Sequence record: MK327928.1
DNA: 64,000 nt
DNA from: Escherichia phage vB_EcoM_G2133
Direction: 5' to 3' (one strand)
Under the pieces are notes generated by a model, which was not told where the DNA came from, searched no databases, and saw only the letters and a program-made list of their open reading frames with translations. How positions within the stretch are numbered: position 1 is the first letter of the stretch; the number at the start of each line of letters is the position of its first letter. Positions 2,484-60,899 of the stretch are shown in pieces. A program made the position numbers and the translations under genes.

Positions 2484-2513
2484 ATTATACCACATCCTTG
2501 TGGTAAAGTAAAC
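2484..2513 (-). promoter_or_regulatory. T4-type early promoter (GTTTAC, 18-bp spacer, TATAAT)
   Basis: minus strand GTTTAC (2513..2508) and TATAAT (2489..2484) preceded by tgg. Confidence 0.6.
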
Positions 2514-4333
2514 TACTGGCTCATCCATTCTTTACGAAGGTCAGCATTATCTCCCATAAGCATTTCAAAAAGCTCTTTCCAATTCTCAGGAAGTTTAACA
2601 ACATCATATACTGGGTTTTGAATCATCTCACGATATTCAGATTTTTCCAAAGAGCCAAGTCCTTTAATATAACGGATGCTATGTTTAGGTAGAGCATCTT
2701 TGGCACTCTCATATTCAGCGACTGTATAAAACCATTCTTGTTTTTTACCGACCTGAGCGATGATTACAGGAGTTTTGACAAAGCGAATTCGTCCTTGTTC
2801 AAATAGTTCTGGCCAATTACTAAAAAATCCGAGCAGAGAAGGATAAATGCTTCCTAGACCATCATGGTCAGCATCAGTCATAATAGCAATATTGCGATAA
2901 TTCAAGTTTTCAGCTTTTTCACCAAGAACTAGACCAGTGATTGCGCAAATATCAAATAGTTCTTTGTTTTTAAGCATATCAGCATATGACATACCCCAAC
3001 TGTTGAGAACTTTACCACGTAATGGATAACCACCATGAAGTTCTTTATCACGAACATCAATAAGATAGCCGATAGCAGAATCACCCTCAGTCAAGAAAAG
3101 AGTAGTATCAGCATCTTTACCGCAAAGATTCGCTTTAATATGTTTATGAACCTTAGCTTTAGAAGCCTTTTTAGCTGCTTTAGTTTCTGCTGCTTTTTCT
3201 GCCGCCAATTTACGAGCCAAAGCAGCTTCAATAATCGGCATTAGAATTGCTTCATTATTTAGAATAGCGCGTGAAATCTTTTTAGCATCAAGCTGAATAT
3301 GACTACGAATTTCGCCAAATGGAGAAGTCAAACACTCTTTAGTTTGAGAATCAAATCGCATGTTTTTCATATCACGAACAAACATAACGATAATCAAACA
3401 TTCTTTGACACGCGCTTTAGTTACATCAATTTTGAACTTACGTTTGATTTGTGGAATAAGGTCTTCACAAATATCATCCATAACACAATCAATGTGATGG
3501 CCACCATTCTTAGTGTGAATGTTATTCACATAAGTTAATTGACGAAAACCATCCGGTGAACGACCAACCGCAATAGAACAATTTTCTTGCTCTTGGACGA
3601 TAGCATGCTCATCATATTGGCGTGCATATTTCTTAAAATTGCCCTGAACCTTTTTACCATTAAAGGTAAATTGAATATCAGGATAAACAACAGCAAGTGT
3701 CTGGAGACGATCCAGTGTAATGTCAAGATAAACTTGGGACAGCTCATTAGTTTCAAATGACATAAAATCAGGAATGAAAGTAACACGAGTTCCTTTCCAT
3801 TTTCCAGGAATATCTTCCCATGATTTATTTTCCATGCCATTTGAACAACGAACTACAATATTATTTTGACCATCACCAGTTTCACCGACAAACATCACAG
3901 AAAAAATGTTTGTCAAACTAGAACCAACACCGTTCATACCACCAGTGACGCGTTCTTTATCATCACCAAAGTTACCACCTGCTTTTGGAATAGTCCAGGC
4001 AGCAACTGGACCAGGAATTTCTTCACCGGTAGGTGTTTTAACCATCGCCTGTGGAATACCACGACCGTTATCTTCAACTGTTACTTGATTGTTTTTAATA
4101 GTAACATTAATTTTATTTGCGAATTTAAACTTAGTACGAATACCTTCATCTACTGAGTTATCGATAATTTCATCAATAAGCTTAACAAGACCAGGTACAT
4201 ACTGAACACTTTCCCATTTACCAAACAGAAAGCGCTCATGCATTTCATTAGCAGAAGAGCCAATGTACATGCCACTACGCTTTTTGATATGTTCAATATC
4301 GCTCAGAATTTTAATTTCATTCTTAATCATCAC
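2513..4333 (-). CDS. 39: DNA topoisomerase II large subunit gp39 (ATPase plus Toprim), uninterrupted
   Basis: 606-aa ORF; N-terminus MIKNEIKILSDIEHIKKRSGMYIGS; Toprim LTEGDSA; DNGRGIP ATPase motif. Confidence 0.85.
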   Translation of the reverse strand: MMIKNEIKILSDIEHIKKRSGMYIGSSANEMHERFLFGKWESVQYVPGLVKLIDEIIDNSVDEGIRTKFKFANKINVTIKNNQVTVEDNGRGIPQAMVKTPTGEEIPGPVAAWTIPKAGGNFGDDKERVTGGMNGVGSSLTNIFSVMFVGETGDGQNNIVVRCSNGMENKSWEDIPGKWKGTRVTFIPDFMSFETNELSQVYLDITLDRLQTLAVVYPDIQFTFNGKKVQGNFKKYARQYDEHAIVQEQENCSIAVGRSPDGFRQLTYVNNIHTKNGGHHIDCVMDDICEDLIPQIKRKFKIDVTKARVKECLIIVMFVRDMKNMRFDSQTKECLTSPFGEIRSHIQLDAKKISRAILNNEAILMPIIEAALARKLAAEKAAETKAAKKASKAKVHKHIKANLCGKDADTTLFLTEGDSAIGYLIDVRDKELHGGYPLRGKVLNSWGMSYADMLKNKELFDICAITGLVLGEKAENLNYRNIAIMTDADHDGLGSIYPSLLGFFSNWPELFEQGRIRFVKTPVIIAQVGKKQEWFYTVAEYESAKDALPKHSIRYIKGLGSLEKSEYREMIQNPVYDVVKLPENWKELFEMLMGDNADLRKEWMSQ

Positions 4334-5218: not shown

Positions 5219-5644
5219 TTATTCCTTAAAGTGTGCTTTCAGCATCTGATACAAAGACCATGCCTGTTCATTATTTTCAATAGTAACTTTCATGACCGGG
5301 AATTCTGTGAAATCTTCTATTTGTTCTTGCTCTTTCTCTTCCTGCTCTTGCTCTCCAGATGCCTGATATGGATTTTCCACTTCATCAAAGAACCCAGCTT
5401 CGTTAGTAGAAAGCCAGATAAAGTTTTCGTCAAGGATATCACCATGTGTTGCGTATCCAACCATGCCAGTAGATGTCACAATTTTAGTAGGACGCCCAAG
5501 ATAATCAGCATCTAAAATTTTAAAAGGTTCCATACCTAAACGCCGTGCGTAGATTCCGTTATCAGTATGGTCTTTAATAAAATTTTCTTGAGCTTGTTTA
5601 TTTTTAAATTGATACCATTTATTAACTTCAAATTTAATAGCCAT
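5219..5644 (-). CDS. hypothetical protein (goF-like by size and position)
   Basis: 141-aa ORF, acidic [11 protein letters not shown] stretch. Confidence 0.4.
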
Positions 5645-5859
5645 TAATAAATTTCCTTCCAGTAAGTTGTGCCATCTTCAGTAATTTCACGAAATACACC
5701 GTAAATTGGCTGTTTATCACCGACTTTCTCATACACATAAACCGAAGTCAAGTGAGTAAACTTAACAGTATGTTCCTTTTTAACCACTACCAAATCTGGA
5801 TCAAATAATACATCTTCAAATTCGTCATTAGTGCAATTCTGAACAATTTTACGTTTCAT
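5644..5859 (-). CDS. hypothetical protein (cef-like by size and position)
   Basis: 71-aa ORF. Confidence 0.4.
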
Positions 5860-5872
5860 TACAATTTCCTCA

Positions 5873-6142
5873 TTAATTAAACAGTGGAGCGATACGTTTC
5901 AGAAGAGTAGCAGCACCTTTAGCGAATTTTACATCATGAAAAACAGTTTCTTCTTCTGTAACAACTCGAACTTTAATATTTTCACAATCCCAATTTTTAC
6001 GAACAATCTTCAAAAGCTGCAGTAAATCTTTACATTCAGCAATATCGATAACACATCCACGAGAATCTTCCATTATCGCACGATAACCGTAAGCCATACC
6101 ATAATCGTTGAAAGATTGCTCGATGATAATTAAGTTTTCCAT
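5873..6142 (-). CDS. hypothetical protein (likely start at ATG 6142; track start 6154 is TTG)
   Basis: GGAG 8 nt upstream of ATG; leader shared with ORF 51169..52137. Confidence 0.45.
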   Translation of the reverse strand: MENLIIIEQSFNDYGMAYGYRAIMEDSRGCVIDIAECKDLLQLLKIVRKNWDCENIKVRVVTEEETVFHDVKFAKGAATLLKRIAPLFN

Positions 6143-6166
6143 TTTATTCTCCAAGTTGTTTTCTGT

Positions 6167-6209
6167 ATCAGTAGTTGATATTGATATAGTACCATAATCA
6201 ACTACTGAT
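6167..6209. repeat. perfect 13-bp inverted repeat (atcagtagttgat / atcaactactgat) around a promoter -10-like box
   Basis: arms 6167-6179 and 6197-6209, 17-bp spacer containing tatagtacc. Confidence 0.8.
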
Positions 6210-6239
6210 GTATATAGTTTTATGAAAAAATTTTAAACT

Positions 6240-6728
6240 TTATGCATAGAGAGCATTGCTATAGTGTTTAATCCAACTTTCAGGAATGACTTTGTATGTT
6301 CCTAAAAATACCACGTTGTACAACTTAACGCCATCTTCTACCCATTGATCGGTAATGTATGCACACATAGCGCGAGTATAAACAGCCTTTCCATCATCTT
6401 TGATAAATTTAAATTCGCAAGGAGCAACGAACTTAATAGCTTGACCGAGTTTCCACTTAAAGTCTACACCTACATGCGAAGTATCAATCGTTTCAATTCC
6501 TTTAGCAGGAACAGCTTTCAAAAACGCAGACTCAAGAAATTTCGCACGAACATAGCCAAACTGAGGTTTAGACTTTCCATCTTTAGGAATGATACGCACT
6601 TTTACTTCAGAATCTTCATCTTTAACACCGTGTTTAAGCTGAATGCTTACAATTTCGACCAATTTTCCTGCTGCTTTAGAACGGGATTTATCAGATACAC
6701 GAGCTAATTCACCAATATTAATAATCAT
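6240..6728 (-). CDS. motB: MotB-like protein
   Basis: 162-aa ORF at the T4 motB position; C-terminus paralogous to ORF 6805..7338. Confidence 0.55.
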   Translation of the reverse strand: MIINIGELARVSDKSRSKAAGKLVEIVSIQLKHGVKDEDSEVKVRIIPKDGKSKPQFGYVRAKFLESAFLKAVPAKGIETIDTSHVGVDFKWKLGQAIKFVAPCEFKFIKDDGKAVYTRAMCAYITDQWVEDGVKLYNVVFLGTYKVIPESWIKHYSNALYA

Positions 6729-6772
6729 AGTTATCTCTCACTTGTTAAAAAGATTTTATACTCCGCGGGACC

Positions 6773-6802
6773 ATTATACTCTGGTCCCAAGAGTTTGTAA
6801 AC
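6773..6802 (-). promoter_or_regulatory. T4-type early promoter
   Basis: GTTTAC (6802..6797), 18-bp spacer, TATAAT (6778..6773). Confidence 0.6.
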
Positions 6803-6804
6803 TA

Positions 6805-7338
6805 TTAATTTAAAATAGCTACCACCGCACTACGAGGTACTACGCTAAAATCACCTGCATGAACAACATTCAGAAGTTCAACGCCATCTTCAATCCATTG
6901 GTCTGTTACCCAACCACAGACCGAAATAAATGGAGTCTTGATAGCTACCGCACGAGTCAGAAGGTCAGTAGGATCGCATTCTTGGAAGAGGATGAATTCA
7001 TCTTCATAAACCAGATTTTTCTCTATTTTGTTATTATCTAAACGACGACCGTGGACAATATAAGATTTAGTAAACCATTTACTTTTTTCAAAGTCTTCAA
7101 CAATAAATTCGCCTTCGCCAAAAACATCAGTCAGAATTTTATGGCCGGAAATCAAGGCATTAGTTTTAATTTTAGGTTCAACTAGTTTGTAGGTTTTGCC
7201 GATTTCAATAGCGGTAGTCATAATAGGTTCCTTAATTTCCAGTGGTTTAACAGGGCATACATAAGTACTTACAACATCAAAATCAACCAGTTTAGCTGCA
7301 GGATTTGGTGTGTATTCAGGATTATAATTAAATTTCAT
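6805..7338 (-). CDS. hypothetical protein, MotB paralog
   Basis: 177 aa; C-terminal TDQWIEDGVELLNVV matches motB TDQWVEDGVKLYNVV. Confidence 0.5.
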   Translation of the reverse strand: MKFNYNPEYTPNPAAKLVDFDVVSTYVCPVKPLEIKEPIMTTAIEIGKTYKLVEPKIKTNALISGHKILTDVFGEGEFIVEDFEKSKWFTKSYIVHGRRLDNNKIEKNLVYEDEFILFQECDPTDLLTRAVAIKTPFISVCGWVTDQWIEDGVELLNVVHAGDFSVVPRSAVVAILN

Positions 7339-7340
7339 AA

Positions 7341-7841
7341 TTATCTCATTTCAATAAAATCTACAAGTTCAGCATGGGATTTACGGAACATTACTTGATG
7401 CCCACCAATGATAACTTCATCTTCAGGAACTTCATATATAGCGAGATAAAATCCTTTAGAAGCTAATTCTTCACGCTCTTCTCGTGTGAACCATCTCATC
7501 ATATCATATTCGCTAGCAAAAGCAAAATGATAAAGAGCTATAAACCATCCTGGAATATGATATTCTACTCCAACATAATCTTTCTTGAACTTAGTATTAA
7601 TTACTATATTAGCGTTTTTAACTAATAGTTTATCTTCGTGCGGTAAAGGAATTCTTTTATTATTATCGCTATGATGCATAAAATTAGGTCTGTCATAACC
7701 TACGTGTAATAGCCACTCTTCGCTCCATGAATCTATTATACTCCTGTACGGCGTTATTTGAACACAAAGATTTCGACGTATTGTTATAGCATCTTCATAA
7801 TCAAGAATACTAAACGATGATTCAACACGATAAATTTTCAT
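7341..7841 (-). CDS. hypothetical protein
   Basis: 166-aa ORF. Confidence 0.45.
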   Translation of the reverse strand: MKIYRVESSFSILDYEDAITIRRNLCVQITPYRSIIDSWSEEWLLHVGYDRPNFMHHSDNNKRIPLPHEDKLLVKNANIVINTKFKKDYVGVEYHIPGWFIALYHFAFASEYDMMRWFTREEREELASKGFYLAIYEVPEDEVIIGGHQVMFRKSHAELVDFIEMR

Positions 7842-7869: not shown

Positions 7870-7899
7870 ATAATACCATAACTAACCGAGGAAGTAAAC
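7870..7899 (-). promoter_or_regulatory. T4-type early promoter (-10 TATTAT)
   Basis: GTTTAC (7899..7894), 18-bp spacer, tggTATTAT. Confidence 0.45.
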
Positions 7900-51168: not shown

Positions 51169-52137
51169 TTATTTCAGAAGAGTAACCTCAGCAATTTCTT
51201 CCCAACCGTTTTTGTCGGTCATAATAAAGTCAGCAAGATAAAGTGCAGTACGCAGTGAAACATTGCGTAAACGGTTAACATTGACTTTCATCCATGATAA
51301 TGCTTTATAAGTTTCTTCATCAGAAAGACCGCGCTTTTGCATCATGTCGGTTGAAAGAATAACATCTTCAACCCTGACCATAATTTCTTCATTAGTGTGA
51401 ACACCCAAATCTAAATAAACTGAGCGGGACACTAATGCTTGTAAATGTGGAGCAAGTTTAGTACCACGGTCTAATTCGCGGTCAATATCAACGTTTGTGA
51501 TAAAAACAATCGTTCCTTTAAATTCAAACTCACGCTCAATGCCTTTTTCTTCTAAGTAAGAAGATGCAGTGCTCCAGCAGACTTTACGGGTCTCTCCAGT
51601 GTCCAGAGCAGCTTTCAGAAGATTAAGAATGTCCATATCAGAGAAAACATCCACATCATCAATCAAAAGGACAGAATTCTCTTCACGATTATTCCAGAGC
51701 TGTTCATAAAGACCGATACCAGAGATTTTACCGTTAATGCTTTTATATTCAATGTATCCAATATCATTTGCTTTATTTAAAGCTTTATCTAAAGAATACG
51801 TTTTACCAATACCTGCTGCTCCCGAGATAATTAATGAACGAATGTTTCCGTTAATAATACCATTCGTCATCATTCCCATAACATTAAATCTTTTATTAAT
51901 GCGGGTTTTCATATCTTCATATGATTCTTTAACTTCTTCAACTTTTACACCATCATATGAAATGTCTGATTTGTAAACCCAAACACCGCGACGTTTACCG
52001 TCAATTTCAACAAAAACTTTACCATCTCCTTGTGCATCTACTGGAGCATTATCTGGGAACCATTCGCCTAAGAGCTCAAAAGTTCCAGAGATTTCTTTAC
52101 CGAAGTAGATACCCTTATTGATAGTTACAGTTTTCAT
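51169..52137 (-). CDS. P-loop ATPase (AAA-like)
   Basis: 322 aa from MKTVTINKG; Walker A GAAGIGKT; Walker B LLIDDVD. Confidence 0.55.
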   Translation of the reverse strand: MKTVTINKGIYFGKEISGTFELLGEWFPDNAPVDAQGDGKVFVEIDGKRRGVWVYKSDISYDGVKVEEVKESYEDMKTRINKRFNVMGMMTNGIINGNIRSLIISGAAGIGKTYSLDKALNKANDIGYIEYKSINGKISGIGLYEQLWNNREENSVLLIDDVDVFSDMDILNLLKAALDTGETRKVCWSTASSYLEEKGIEREFEFKGTIVFITNVDIDRELDRGTKLAPHLQALVSRSVYLDLGVHTNEEIMVRVEDVILSTDMMQKRGLSDEETYKALSWMKVNVNRLRNVSLRTALYLADFIMTDKNGWEEIAEVTLLK

Positions 52138-52174
52138 TTTATTCTCCAAATCTGTATCAGTAGTTGATAGTTGT

Positions 52175-52204
52175 ATAGTACCATAAAGCTTTATGCTTGT
52201 AAAC
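52175..52204 (-). promoter_or_regulatory. early promoter variant (-10 TACTAT), repeated promoter-leader family
   Basis: GTTTAC (52204..52199), 18-bp spacer, TACTATAC. Confidence 0.45.
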
Positions 52205-52235
52205 CGTTTTGTGAAAAAATTTTTGAAATAAAAAA

Positions 52236-52253
52236 GGGGACCTCTAAGGCCCC
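52236..52253 (-). terminator. G/C stem-loop with one bulge
   Basis: ggggacc-tctaa-ggcccc after the stop of ORF 52263..52748. Confidence 0.4.
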
Positions 52254-52262
52254 TTTATGCTT

Positions 52263-56654: not shown

Positions 56655-56684
56655 ATAGTACCACGGCTCAAACGAAAAGTAAAC
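56655..56684 (-). promoter_or_regulatory. early promoter variant (-10 TACTAT), repeated promoter-leader family
   Basis: GTTTAC (56684..56679), 18-bp spacer, gtggTACTATAC. Confidence 0.45.
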
Positions 56685-60869: not shown

Positions 60870-60899
60870 ATTATACCACAGTCAAGAGGAAAAGTAAAC
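60870..60899 (-). promoter_or_regulatory. T4-type early promoter for regB
   Basis: GTTTAC (60899..60894), 18-bp spacer, gtggTATAAT. Confidence 0.6.

Follow-up and report, generated by a model that had tools for sequence, protein, structure and literature searches.

A stem-loop is superimposed on a sigma-70-type early promoter at the motB/cef junction of T4-like phages, and we propose, at about even probability, that it acts there as a folded nucleic acid, most likely as an intercistronic RNA element. Its anatomy, its conservation and covariation among relatives, and the separability of hairpin and promoter are matters of direct observation. The window, by which we mean the whole stretch of 64,000 nucleotides that was analysed, comes from a T4-like myovirus of the genus Tequatrovirus that shares about 97% identity with phages such as PE37, and its genes lie on the minus strand. 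The element lies between the motB stop codon (TAA, 6240-6242) and the start codon (ATG, 6140-6142) of an 89-aa ORF. It is a perfect inverted repeat whose arms, ATCAGTAGTTGAT at 6167-6179 and the exact reverse complement at 6197-6209, are 17 nt apart, and an imperfect extension lengthens the arms to 20 nt at 85% complementarity. The centre of the palindrome contains tatagtacc; the minus (coding) strand reads GGTACTATA, with the -10 box TACTAT, and the symmetry centre (6188) falls inside the -10. A previous inspection of the letters alone (hereafter the sequence-only reading) had reported this 13-bp repeat around a -10-like box; the coordinates and the perfect complementarity were borne out, and the box is genuine (TACTAT, minus strand). 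Read along the coding strand, the parts are the following.

6773 to 6801, minus strand: upstream motB early promoter, TTTACA-17-TATAAT, presumed source of read-through transcripts with both arms
6215 to 6239, minus strand: UP-like A/T-rich tract agtttaaaattttttcataaaacta, directly past the motB stop codon, near-identical to that of the 52-kb site and of other early cassettes
6209 to 6214, minus strand: -35-like hexamer TATACA, aligning with GTTTACA of the 52-kb site, 17 bp upstream of the -10
6197 to 6209, minus strand: 5' arm ATCAGTAGTTGAT, in the promoter spacer, at about -30 to -18
6186 to 6194, minus strand: extended -10, TGG followed by TACTAT; TGGTACTAT is identical to canonical early promoters at 52180, 50738, 56660 and 25454
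6167 to 6179, minus strand: 3' arm ATCAACTACTGAT, starting 7 nt past the -10 at the predicted +1 (6179); part of the shared leader
6143 to 6166, minus strand: linker and SD, A-rich and unstructured, with GGAG at 6149-6152, outside the stem; the ATG follows at 6140-6142
5873 to 6142, minus strand: 89-aa ORF behind the palindrome leader (phrog_3720, function unassigned)

The start at 6179 is predicted from its spacing to the -10, and the 3' flank of the stem is acagaaaacaac. Several features of a T4-type early promoter are present: a 17-bp spacer, a TGn extended -10, a -10 of the TAnnnT form and an A/T-rich UP region. The TATACA hexamer scores 5/6 against TTTACA and 4/6 against TTGACA, the T4 early consensus being TTTACA/GTTTAC, and it also serves as -35 in Dhakavirus-type relatives. 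The sequence-only reading had held that the -35 was replaced by an inverted copy of the leader; instead, ATATACA aligns with the GTTTACA of the 52-kb site and the upstream arm fills the 17-bp spacer, so that the -35, judged by this alignment, is weakened rather than replaced. A MotA-dependent middle promoter was rejected, as there is no TGCTT MotA box at about -30 (consensus from PMC2988021). Genes further downstream include topoisomerase subunit 39 and the zinc-ribbon gene 39.2 ('FmdB-like transcriptional regulator' in records). Gene 39 (2513-4333, minus strand) is a single 606-aa ORF in the window, which thus has the unsplit form of the topoisomerase; the T4 record has a 516-aa gp39, an insertion splitting the subunit.

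The same leader is found at a second early cassette of the window, site A at 52 kb.

52135 to 52255, minus strand: site A cassette, with a terminator hairpin and T-run at about 52230-52254, TTTACA at 52198-52203 and TACTAT at 52175-52180
52156 to 52168, minus strand: site A leader arm by alignment with the palindrome site, followed by the SD and the ATG at 52135-52137

The palindrome site and the 52-kb site have in common the UP-like tract, the position of the -35, the 17-bp spacer, TGGTACTAT, the leader ATCAACTACTGATACAGA, the SD and the ATG; their leaders differ by a 6-nt indel. This alignment confirms the recurrence of the downstream arm, leader and start at 52137-52170 that had been read from the letters. 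The 13-mer ATCAGTAGTTGAT has three exact matches in the window: the two arms of the palindrome and 52156-52168. In T4-like genomes, canonical early promoters of at least four classes are followed by exact copies of the leader; an exact-pattern scan of IMG/VR for the leader gave 35 matches, mostly in unrelated coding sequences, and information came from the T4-like matches only. Among cassettes that share the leader, the spacers are unrelated and a terminator hairpin often lies just upstream, and the motB/cef copy is the only one whose spacer is complementary to the leader. The spacer of the 52-kb promoter (52182-52195, minus strand) holds a perfect 14-bp palindrome of its own, CATAAAGCTTTATG, and GCATAAAG is found again immediately ahead of the upstream terminator and at the motB stop codon of the palindrome site.

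By itself, the length of the palindrome is only mildly unusual: a Markov simulation of perfect inverted repeats of at least 13 bp with loops of at most 40 nt gave about 0.125 expected per 64-kb window (5 in 40 simulations), and two were observed. The other one (41829-41841/41878-41890, AAAATAATCTAAA, 36-nt loop) is within a coding region and very AT-rich, and is probably due to chance. The fold at the motB/cef junction is more distinctive, with z = -4.8 as RNA and z = -5.5 as DNA, none of 200 shuffles being as stable. What led us to reject a chance origin is the conservation and covariation of the palindrome in relatives; these data show that it does not result from chance, and they mark the element as a selected feature and not noise.

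Within Tequatrovirus, a 76-nt query covering the element matched 336 of 506 records at 99% identity or more; over the surrounding 1.2 kb that level was attained by none. Substitutions in the sampled records fell in the linker or just 5' of the -35, apart from a single arm variant, an A to G change in the 5' arm (SA21RB and vB_SsoM_113) that retains a G.T/G.U wobble. The palindrome is more conserved in Tequatrovirus than the neighbouring linker and coding DNA. The SA21RB record (L064; features at 18-76, 1127-1182 and 2148-2198) carries submitter annotations of a 'T4 early promoter' overlapping a 'rho-independent terminator' upstream of motB.2 and motB, and of a 'terminator' lying exactly on the homologue of the palindrome. 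The T4 motB-cef gap contains the identical palindrome, leader and ATG, where the palindrome is unannotated although T4 is among the best-studied phages; the site is not discussed in the MotB, GoF and DksA papers. The 89-aa ORF is intact in the window and in some relatives and absent from other genera, in which cef directly follows the hairpin. In T4 a frame-breaking 208-bp deletion leaves just the promoter, leader and ATG (locus L001, about 1490-1560), so the element is retained even when the adjacent gene is dead. The same or similar truncations of the ORF were observed in further relatives.

To follow the junction beyond Tequatrovirus, cef-upstream regions were gathered from many genera, IMG/VR genomes included, with MotB and Cef as anchors. 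Roughly 1,000 such regions were located. At least 12 T4-like genera have a -35/-10 promoter and a stem bridging the -10 at the same junction. The layout is nearly always a GTTTAC-type -35, a 17-bp spacer, a -10 (TACTAT, TATAGT, TATTAT or TATAAT), an A/C-rich linker, the SD and the ATG. Stems are present in Winklervirus, Tegunavirus, Marfavirus, Kanagawavirus, Karamvirus, Gelderlandvirus, Mosigvirus, Dhakavirus, Tulanevirus, Serratia phage 92A1 and further IMG/VR lineages, with arms such as these.

Winklervirus: GGTGTAGGAG/CTCCTACACC
Tegunavirus: TTGGTAGGAG/CTCCTACCAA
Kanagawavirus: TTGGTGTAGGA/TCCTACACCAA
Karamvirus: AGGGCTAT/ATAGCCCT
Gelderlandvirus: AGGGTTAT/ATAACCCT
Mosigvirus: GGTCTAT/ATAGACC
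Dhakavirus: GGTAGGGTA/TACCCTATC
Serratia phage 92A1: AGTGTGTAGAG/CTCTACACACT
Aeromonas Tulanevirus: TGGTGTGGC/GCCACATCA
Locus L116: TGGTAGAAGAC/GTCTTCTACCA

The arms comprise at least 10 different sequences, vary in length from 5 to 13 bp and in spacing from 4 to 17 nt, and keep their complementarity by compensatory changes; in most genera they form a compact palindrome of 20-26 bp. Covariation was counted on a 17-sequence alignment (A4) at the seven pairs outside the TGn/-10 positions. Cells were paired in 83.9% of cases, compared with 67.3% in shuffles (0/500) and 34-54% when the partners were slid; six of the seven pairs had changed on both sides, and the covariation score was 0.468 versus 0.161 in shuffles (0/500). 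Tequatrovirus itself has undergone a register shift: a leader insertion of about 13 nt has placed the 3' arm about 6 nt further downstream, on a conserved ATCAAC plus the insertion, and the spacer is complementary to the shifted arm, so that the stem is kept although the paired nucleotides have turned over. Taken together, these comparisons indicate that the cef-junction stem is kept by compensatory evolution across T4-like genera.

Hairpin and promoter can nevertheless come apart. Gaprivervirus (SP18, TH22 and several IMG/VR genomes) has a GATAGGG-loop-CCCTATC hairpin 3 nt before the cef SD, with no -10 in the loop and no -35. Conversely, Jiaodavirus keeps the promoter without the cef-junction stem, which is thus dispensable in some lineages. 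Phage F2 (cef at 2189 of its locus, L066) also does without the usual hairpin; its spacer TTCTCCTCT is an anti-SD to the cef SD AGAGGAGAA, the predicted SD accessibility is 0.33 in read-through RNA versus 0.69 in promoter-initiated RNA, and F2 appears, on this prediction, to have swapped to a type that masks the SD. In L122 (IMGVR_UViG_2706795719) a canonical GC-rich terminator, AAAGAGGT-TTACAA-GACCTCTTTTATTTT, overlaps the promoter upstream of cef: the -35 TTTACA forms its loop, and the 17-bp spacer before TATTAT consists of its 3' arm and T-run. These four cases argue that the hairpin is not there to regulate the cef promoter and that the promoter needs no hairpin. The cef promoter of Jiaodavirus, a Klebsiella lineage, has an inverted repeat inside its spacer, CCACAAGGATGTGG (L078, L079 and L118-L120), which is also present in two early promoters of the window with their -10 at 2489 and 47761 (minus strand); this recurrence suggests a second shared promoter type with a small hairpin.

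The pairs that depart from Watson-Crick pairing bear on the nature of the folded strand. Among clean stems, outside the positions constrained by the promoter, there are five independent G.T pairs, with the G always in the 5' arm, and no A.C pair. The pattern (n=5, P about 0.03) is suggestive only, of folding of the sense strand, be it in RNA or in the non-template strand of DNA; at the same suggestive level, neither a duplex site nor a two-sided cruciform would be expected to show it. The count over all pairs (27 G.T to 6 A.C) was not used as evidence, since the TGn and -10 consensus dictates the innermost pairs.

We then considered what such a fold might do. Masking of the SD, of the gene-e type, was rejected. 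The stem ends 14 nt from the SD in the window, and 3-12 nt from it in other genera. The predicted probability that the SD to AUG region is unpaired is 0.43 in read-through RNA versus 0.46 in promoter-initiated RNA, whereas positive controls, early promoters of the window with the SD in the 3' arm, did respond (0.32 to 0.70, 0.33 to 0.65 and 0.30 to 0.54). Since the 5' arm makes no difference to predicted SD accessibility, no effect on translation is expected. A canonical intrinsic terminator was rejected because no U-run follows the 3' arm, although the SA21RB record (WebGeSTer) annotates one; a terminator scan returned no terminator-like site in 5500-7500, and the region between the motB stop codon and the -35 holds no GC-rich hairpin with a T-run, whereas the 52-kb site has one. 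Rfam covariance models found no match in 5700-6900 on either strand at an E-value of 1 or less. RNase III has a stem-length requirement, and an RNase III site is unlikely as the general function, the stems of other genera being only 5-13 bp.

Published T4 RNA-seq at 5 min gives 32.6 reads/nt for motB, 32.8 for cef and 41.2 for goF, and each of these values roughly doubles when a motA amber phage infects (PMC6024815 Table S1). In these data the RNA level is flat across the palindrome, with neither a jump nor a drop; in T4 the element thus neither terminates strongly nor adds strong promoter activity, barring cancellation of one effect by the other. More broadly, motB.1, motB, cef, goF, 39.2 and 39.1 go up 1.5- to 2.1-fold in the motA amber infection while dexA, motB.2, dda and dda.1 go down 2- to 4-fold, and these opposite responses place a boundary between MotA-dependent and early-promoter RNA between motB.2 and motB.1.

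The mechanism that we favour is as follows. Transcripts from the motB promoter would read through the junction and carry both arms, and the hairpin would fold; RNA from the internal promoter would begin at the first base of the 3' arm, would thus be missing the 5' arm, and would form no hairpin. By position, with the 5' arm at about -30 to -18 and the 3' arm at the predicted +1, folding is possible in read-through RNA only. The hairpin would then set the fate of that RNA, as a decay barrier, a processing mark or a structural insulator just 5' of the A-rich linker and SD; its overlap with the promoter would follow from the shortness of the junction, about 60-100 nt. We infer both the RNA level of action and the specific role. 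The flat T4 RNA-seq profile, with no visible steady-state effect at the site, counts against this mechanism.

Three other explanations were weighed against this one. The element might be a composite of terminator and promoter, comparable to the PeSL cassettes, in which the hairpin pauses or partly terminates motB RNA and the overlapping promoter re-initiates, so that the two units are insulated. Such cassettes have been described as a promoter with a terminator stem-loop (PMC2839356, PMC4122927); a true terminator stands just upstream of the promoter at site A and at other cassettes with the same leader, the L122 junction has a canonical GC-rich hairpin and T-run with the -35 in the loop, a WebGeSTer run marks the homologous palindrome of SA21RB as a rho-independent terminator, and partial termination cancelled by re-initiation would also give a flat RNA-seq profile. 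However, L122 is the only lineage with a U-run past the 3' arm, where the others are A/C-rich instead; the T4-type stem is AT-rich with a 17-nt loop, the terminator scan of 5500-7500 was empty, and exact cancellation in two infections, wild type and motA amber, would be a coincidence. We consider this composite unlikely. Even less support can be given to the absence of any function, by which cassette recombination or templated (quasipalindrome) mutation inverted the leader into the spacer and the result hitch-hikes with the promoter. T4 is known to undergo quasipalindrome-templated mutation, the leader is both shared and mobile, and a perfect 13-bp inverted repeat is not astronomically rare; moreover, T4-type genomes shuffle at such cassettes (PMC2839356, PMC4122927). 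Against this, independent lineages have a stem at this position although its sequence differs among them, its covariation is significant, the stem was kept through the Tequatrovirus register shift, and the palindrome is better conserved there than the linker and coding DNA beside it; we regard a functionless origin as very improbable.

The sequence-only reading had suggested an operator-like palindrome or cruciform that could bind a dimeric regulator or silence the promoter. Such a switch at the DNA level could be an operator on the -10 for a dimeric phage or host protein, or a supercoiling-driven cruciform, and would shut off or tune the promoter. The palindrome is centred exactly on the -10, its 20-26 bp in most genera is an operator-like size, its fold is significant as DNA (z = -5.5), and topoisomerase subunit 39 and zinc-ribbon 39.2 are encoded downstream. 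Dyad symmetry kept by compensatory change is also expected of a duplex site with a co-evolving dimer, as a symmetric site needs it too. The operator is nonetheless disfavoured. While complementarity holds, the sequence and length of the arms and the spacing of the half-sites (4 to 17 nt) vary even between related genera, and a binding protein would have had to re-evolve its specificity and geometry repeatedly; no candidate regulator was found to co-vary with the arms, gp39.2 being nearly invariant while they change. The Gaprivervirus hairpin has no recognisable promoter to repress, and Jiaodavirus and F2 have the promoter without the cef-junction stem. The non-Watson-Crick pairs are G.T and never A.C, and wherever one arm of a cruciform held a G.T pair, the opposite arm would have an A.C mismatch. 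A 17-nt loop disfavours cruciform extrusion, and the T4-type loop is of that length. In addition, a review (PMC2988021) describes no sequence-specific repressor of T4 early promoters. On balance a DNA-level switch seems to us distinctly unlikely.

A further idea, also distinctly unlikely, is that the element could serve as a dedicated regulator of the cef-goF-39.2-39.1-39 early operon, either as an RNA operator for a product of the operon or as a topology-sensing, strand-specific DNA hairpin upstream of the topoisomerase gene. In the first version the read-through hairpin and A-rich linker may be the target of the operon's own product; GoF has a predicted LSm-like RNA-binding fold (PMC12152347). 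If true, this would be a device not yet described for T4 early genes, conserved across Straboviridae.

Stems that bridge the -10 are not confined to the motB/cef junction. Several canonical early promoters of the window have them, with z = -4.6 to -6.9; they are strong at 60875, 7875, 50738 and 6778 and weaker at 56660, 15177 and 40384 (all on the minus strand). At 60875, 7875 and 50738 the spacer includes a pyrimidine-rich anti-SD, and the SD of the gene that follows forms the 3' arm. The SD is predicted to be about twice as accessible in promoter-initiated as in read-through RNA at 60875, 50738, 56660 and 40384, but not at 7875; on these predictions, the SD-masking promoters of the window follow the logic of gene e at early promoters. 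A promoter-in-hairpin device known at a few late-promoter genes would thus seem to be far wider at early promoters, and to occur there in two forms, one that masks the ribosome-binding site (several promoters of the window) and one that does not (the palindrome site). With both arms in read-through RNA only, transcripts of the same gene from the upstream and the local promoter would not be equivalent, which bears on an old T4 question, that of delayed-early (read-through) versus immediate-early expression. The natural variants without the stem or without the promoter make the palindrome a clean, mutable test case. The palindrome sequence itself is already known, as an old sequence in a model phage; what is new is that compensatory change has conserved it so deeply, that hairpin and promoter can be separated, and that promoter-bridging stems, mostly SD-masking, recur at early promoters across the window.

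The element resembles several known systems and differs from each. Palindromic repressor operators that overlap a -10 exist, and like them it has dyad symmetry centred on the -10; unlike them, its half-sites and spacing vary among relatives, its hairpin outlives the promoter and it has no known cognate protein. Intercistronic hairpins that act as decay barriers include stabilisers of the REP type and stable hairpins found between T4 cistrons, none of which is known to be superimposed on a promoter. The palindrome is like these in being a hairpin devoid of a U-run between polycistronic early cistrons, with an unstructured A-rich stretch after it, and unlike known intercistronic stem-loops in its superimposition on a promoter. 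With the PeSL (promoter-early stem-loop) cassettes of Arbiol 2010 (PMC2839356) and Comeau 2014 (PMC4122927) it shares an AT-rich region, an early promoter (TTTACW-N17-TAYWAT in the cassettes), an SD, a start codon, and a hyperplastic region with a variable ORF alongside, and its leader is common to at least three other cassettes. Site A at 52 kb has the textbook PeSL layout (PMC4122927). The PeSL stem-loop, however, is a terminator just upstream of the promoter, where the palindrome site has none; here the stem spans the -10, its 5' arm belonging to the spacer and its 3' arm to the transcript. The closest parallel is provided by T4 genes e, soc, 49 and I-TevI, in which a promoter is nested in an inhibitory stem-loop (Uzan & Miller 2010, PMC3014915). 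As in those genes, the promoter lies within a stem-loop, both arms would be present in read-through RNA only, and the arrangement is conserved in T4 relatives. In those genes, however, the promoters are late ones and the 3' arm holds the SD and/or AUG, so that translation is blocked (PMC3014915), whereas the promoter at the palindrome is of the early sigma-70 type and its SD lies outside the 3' arm.
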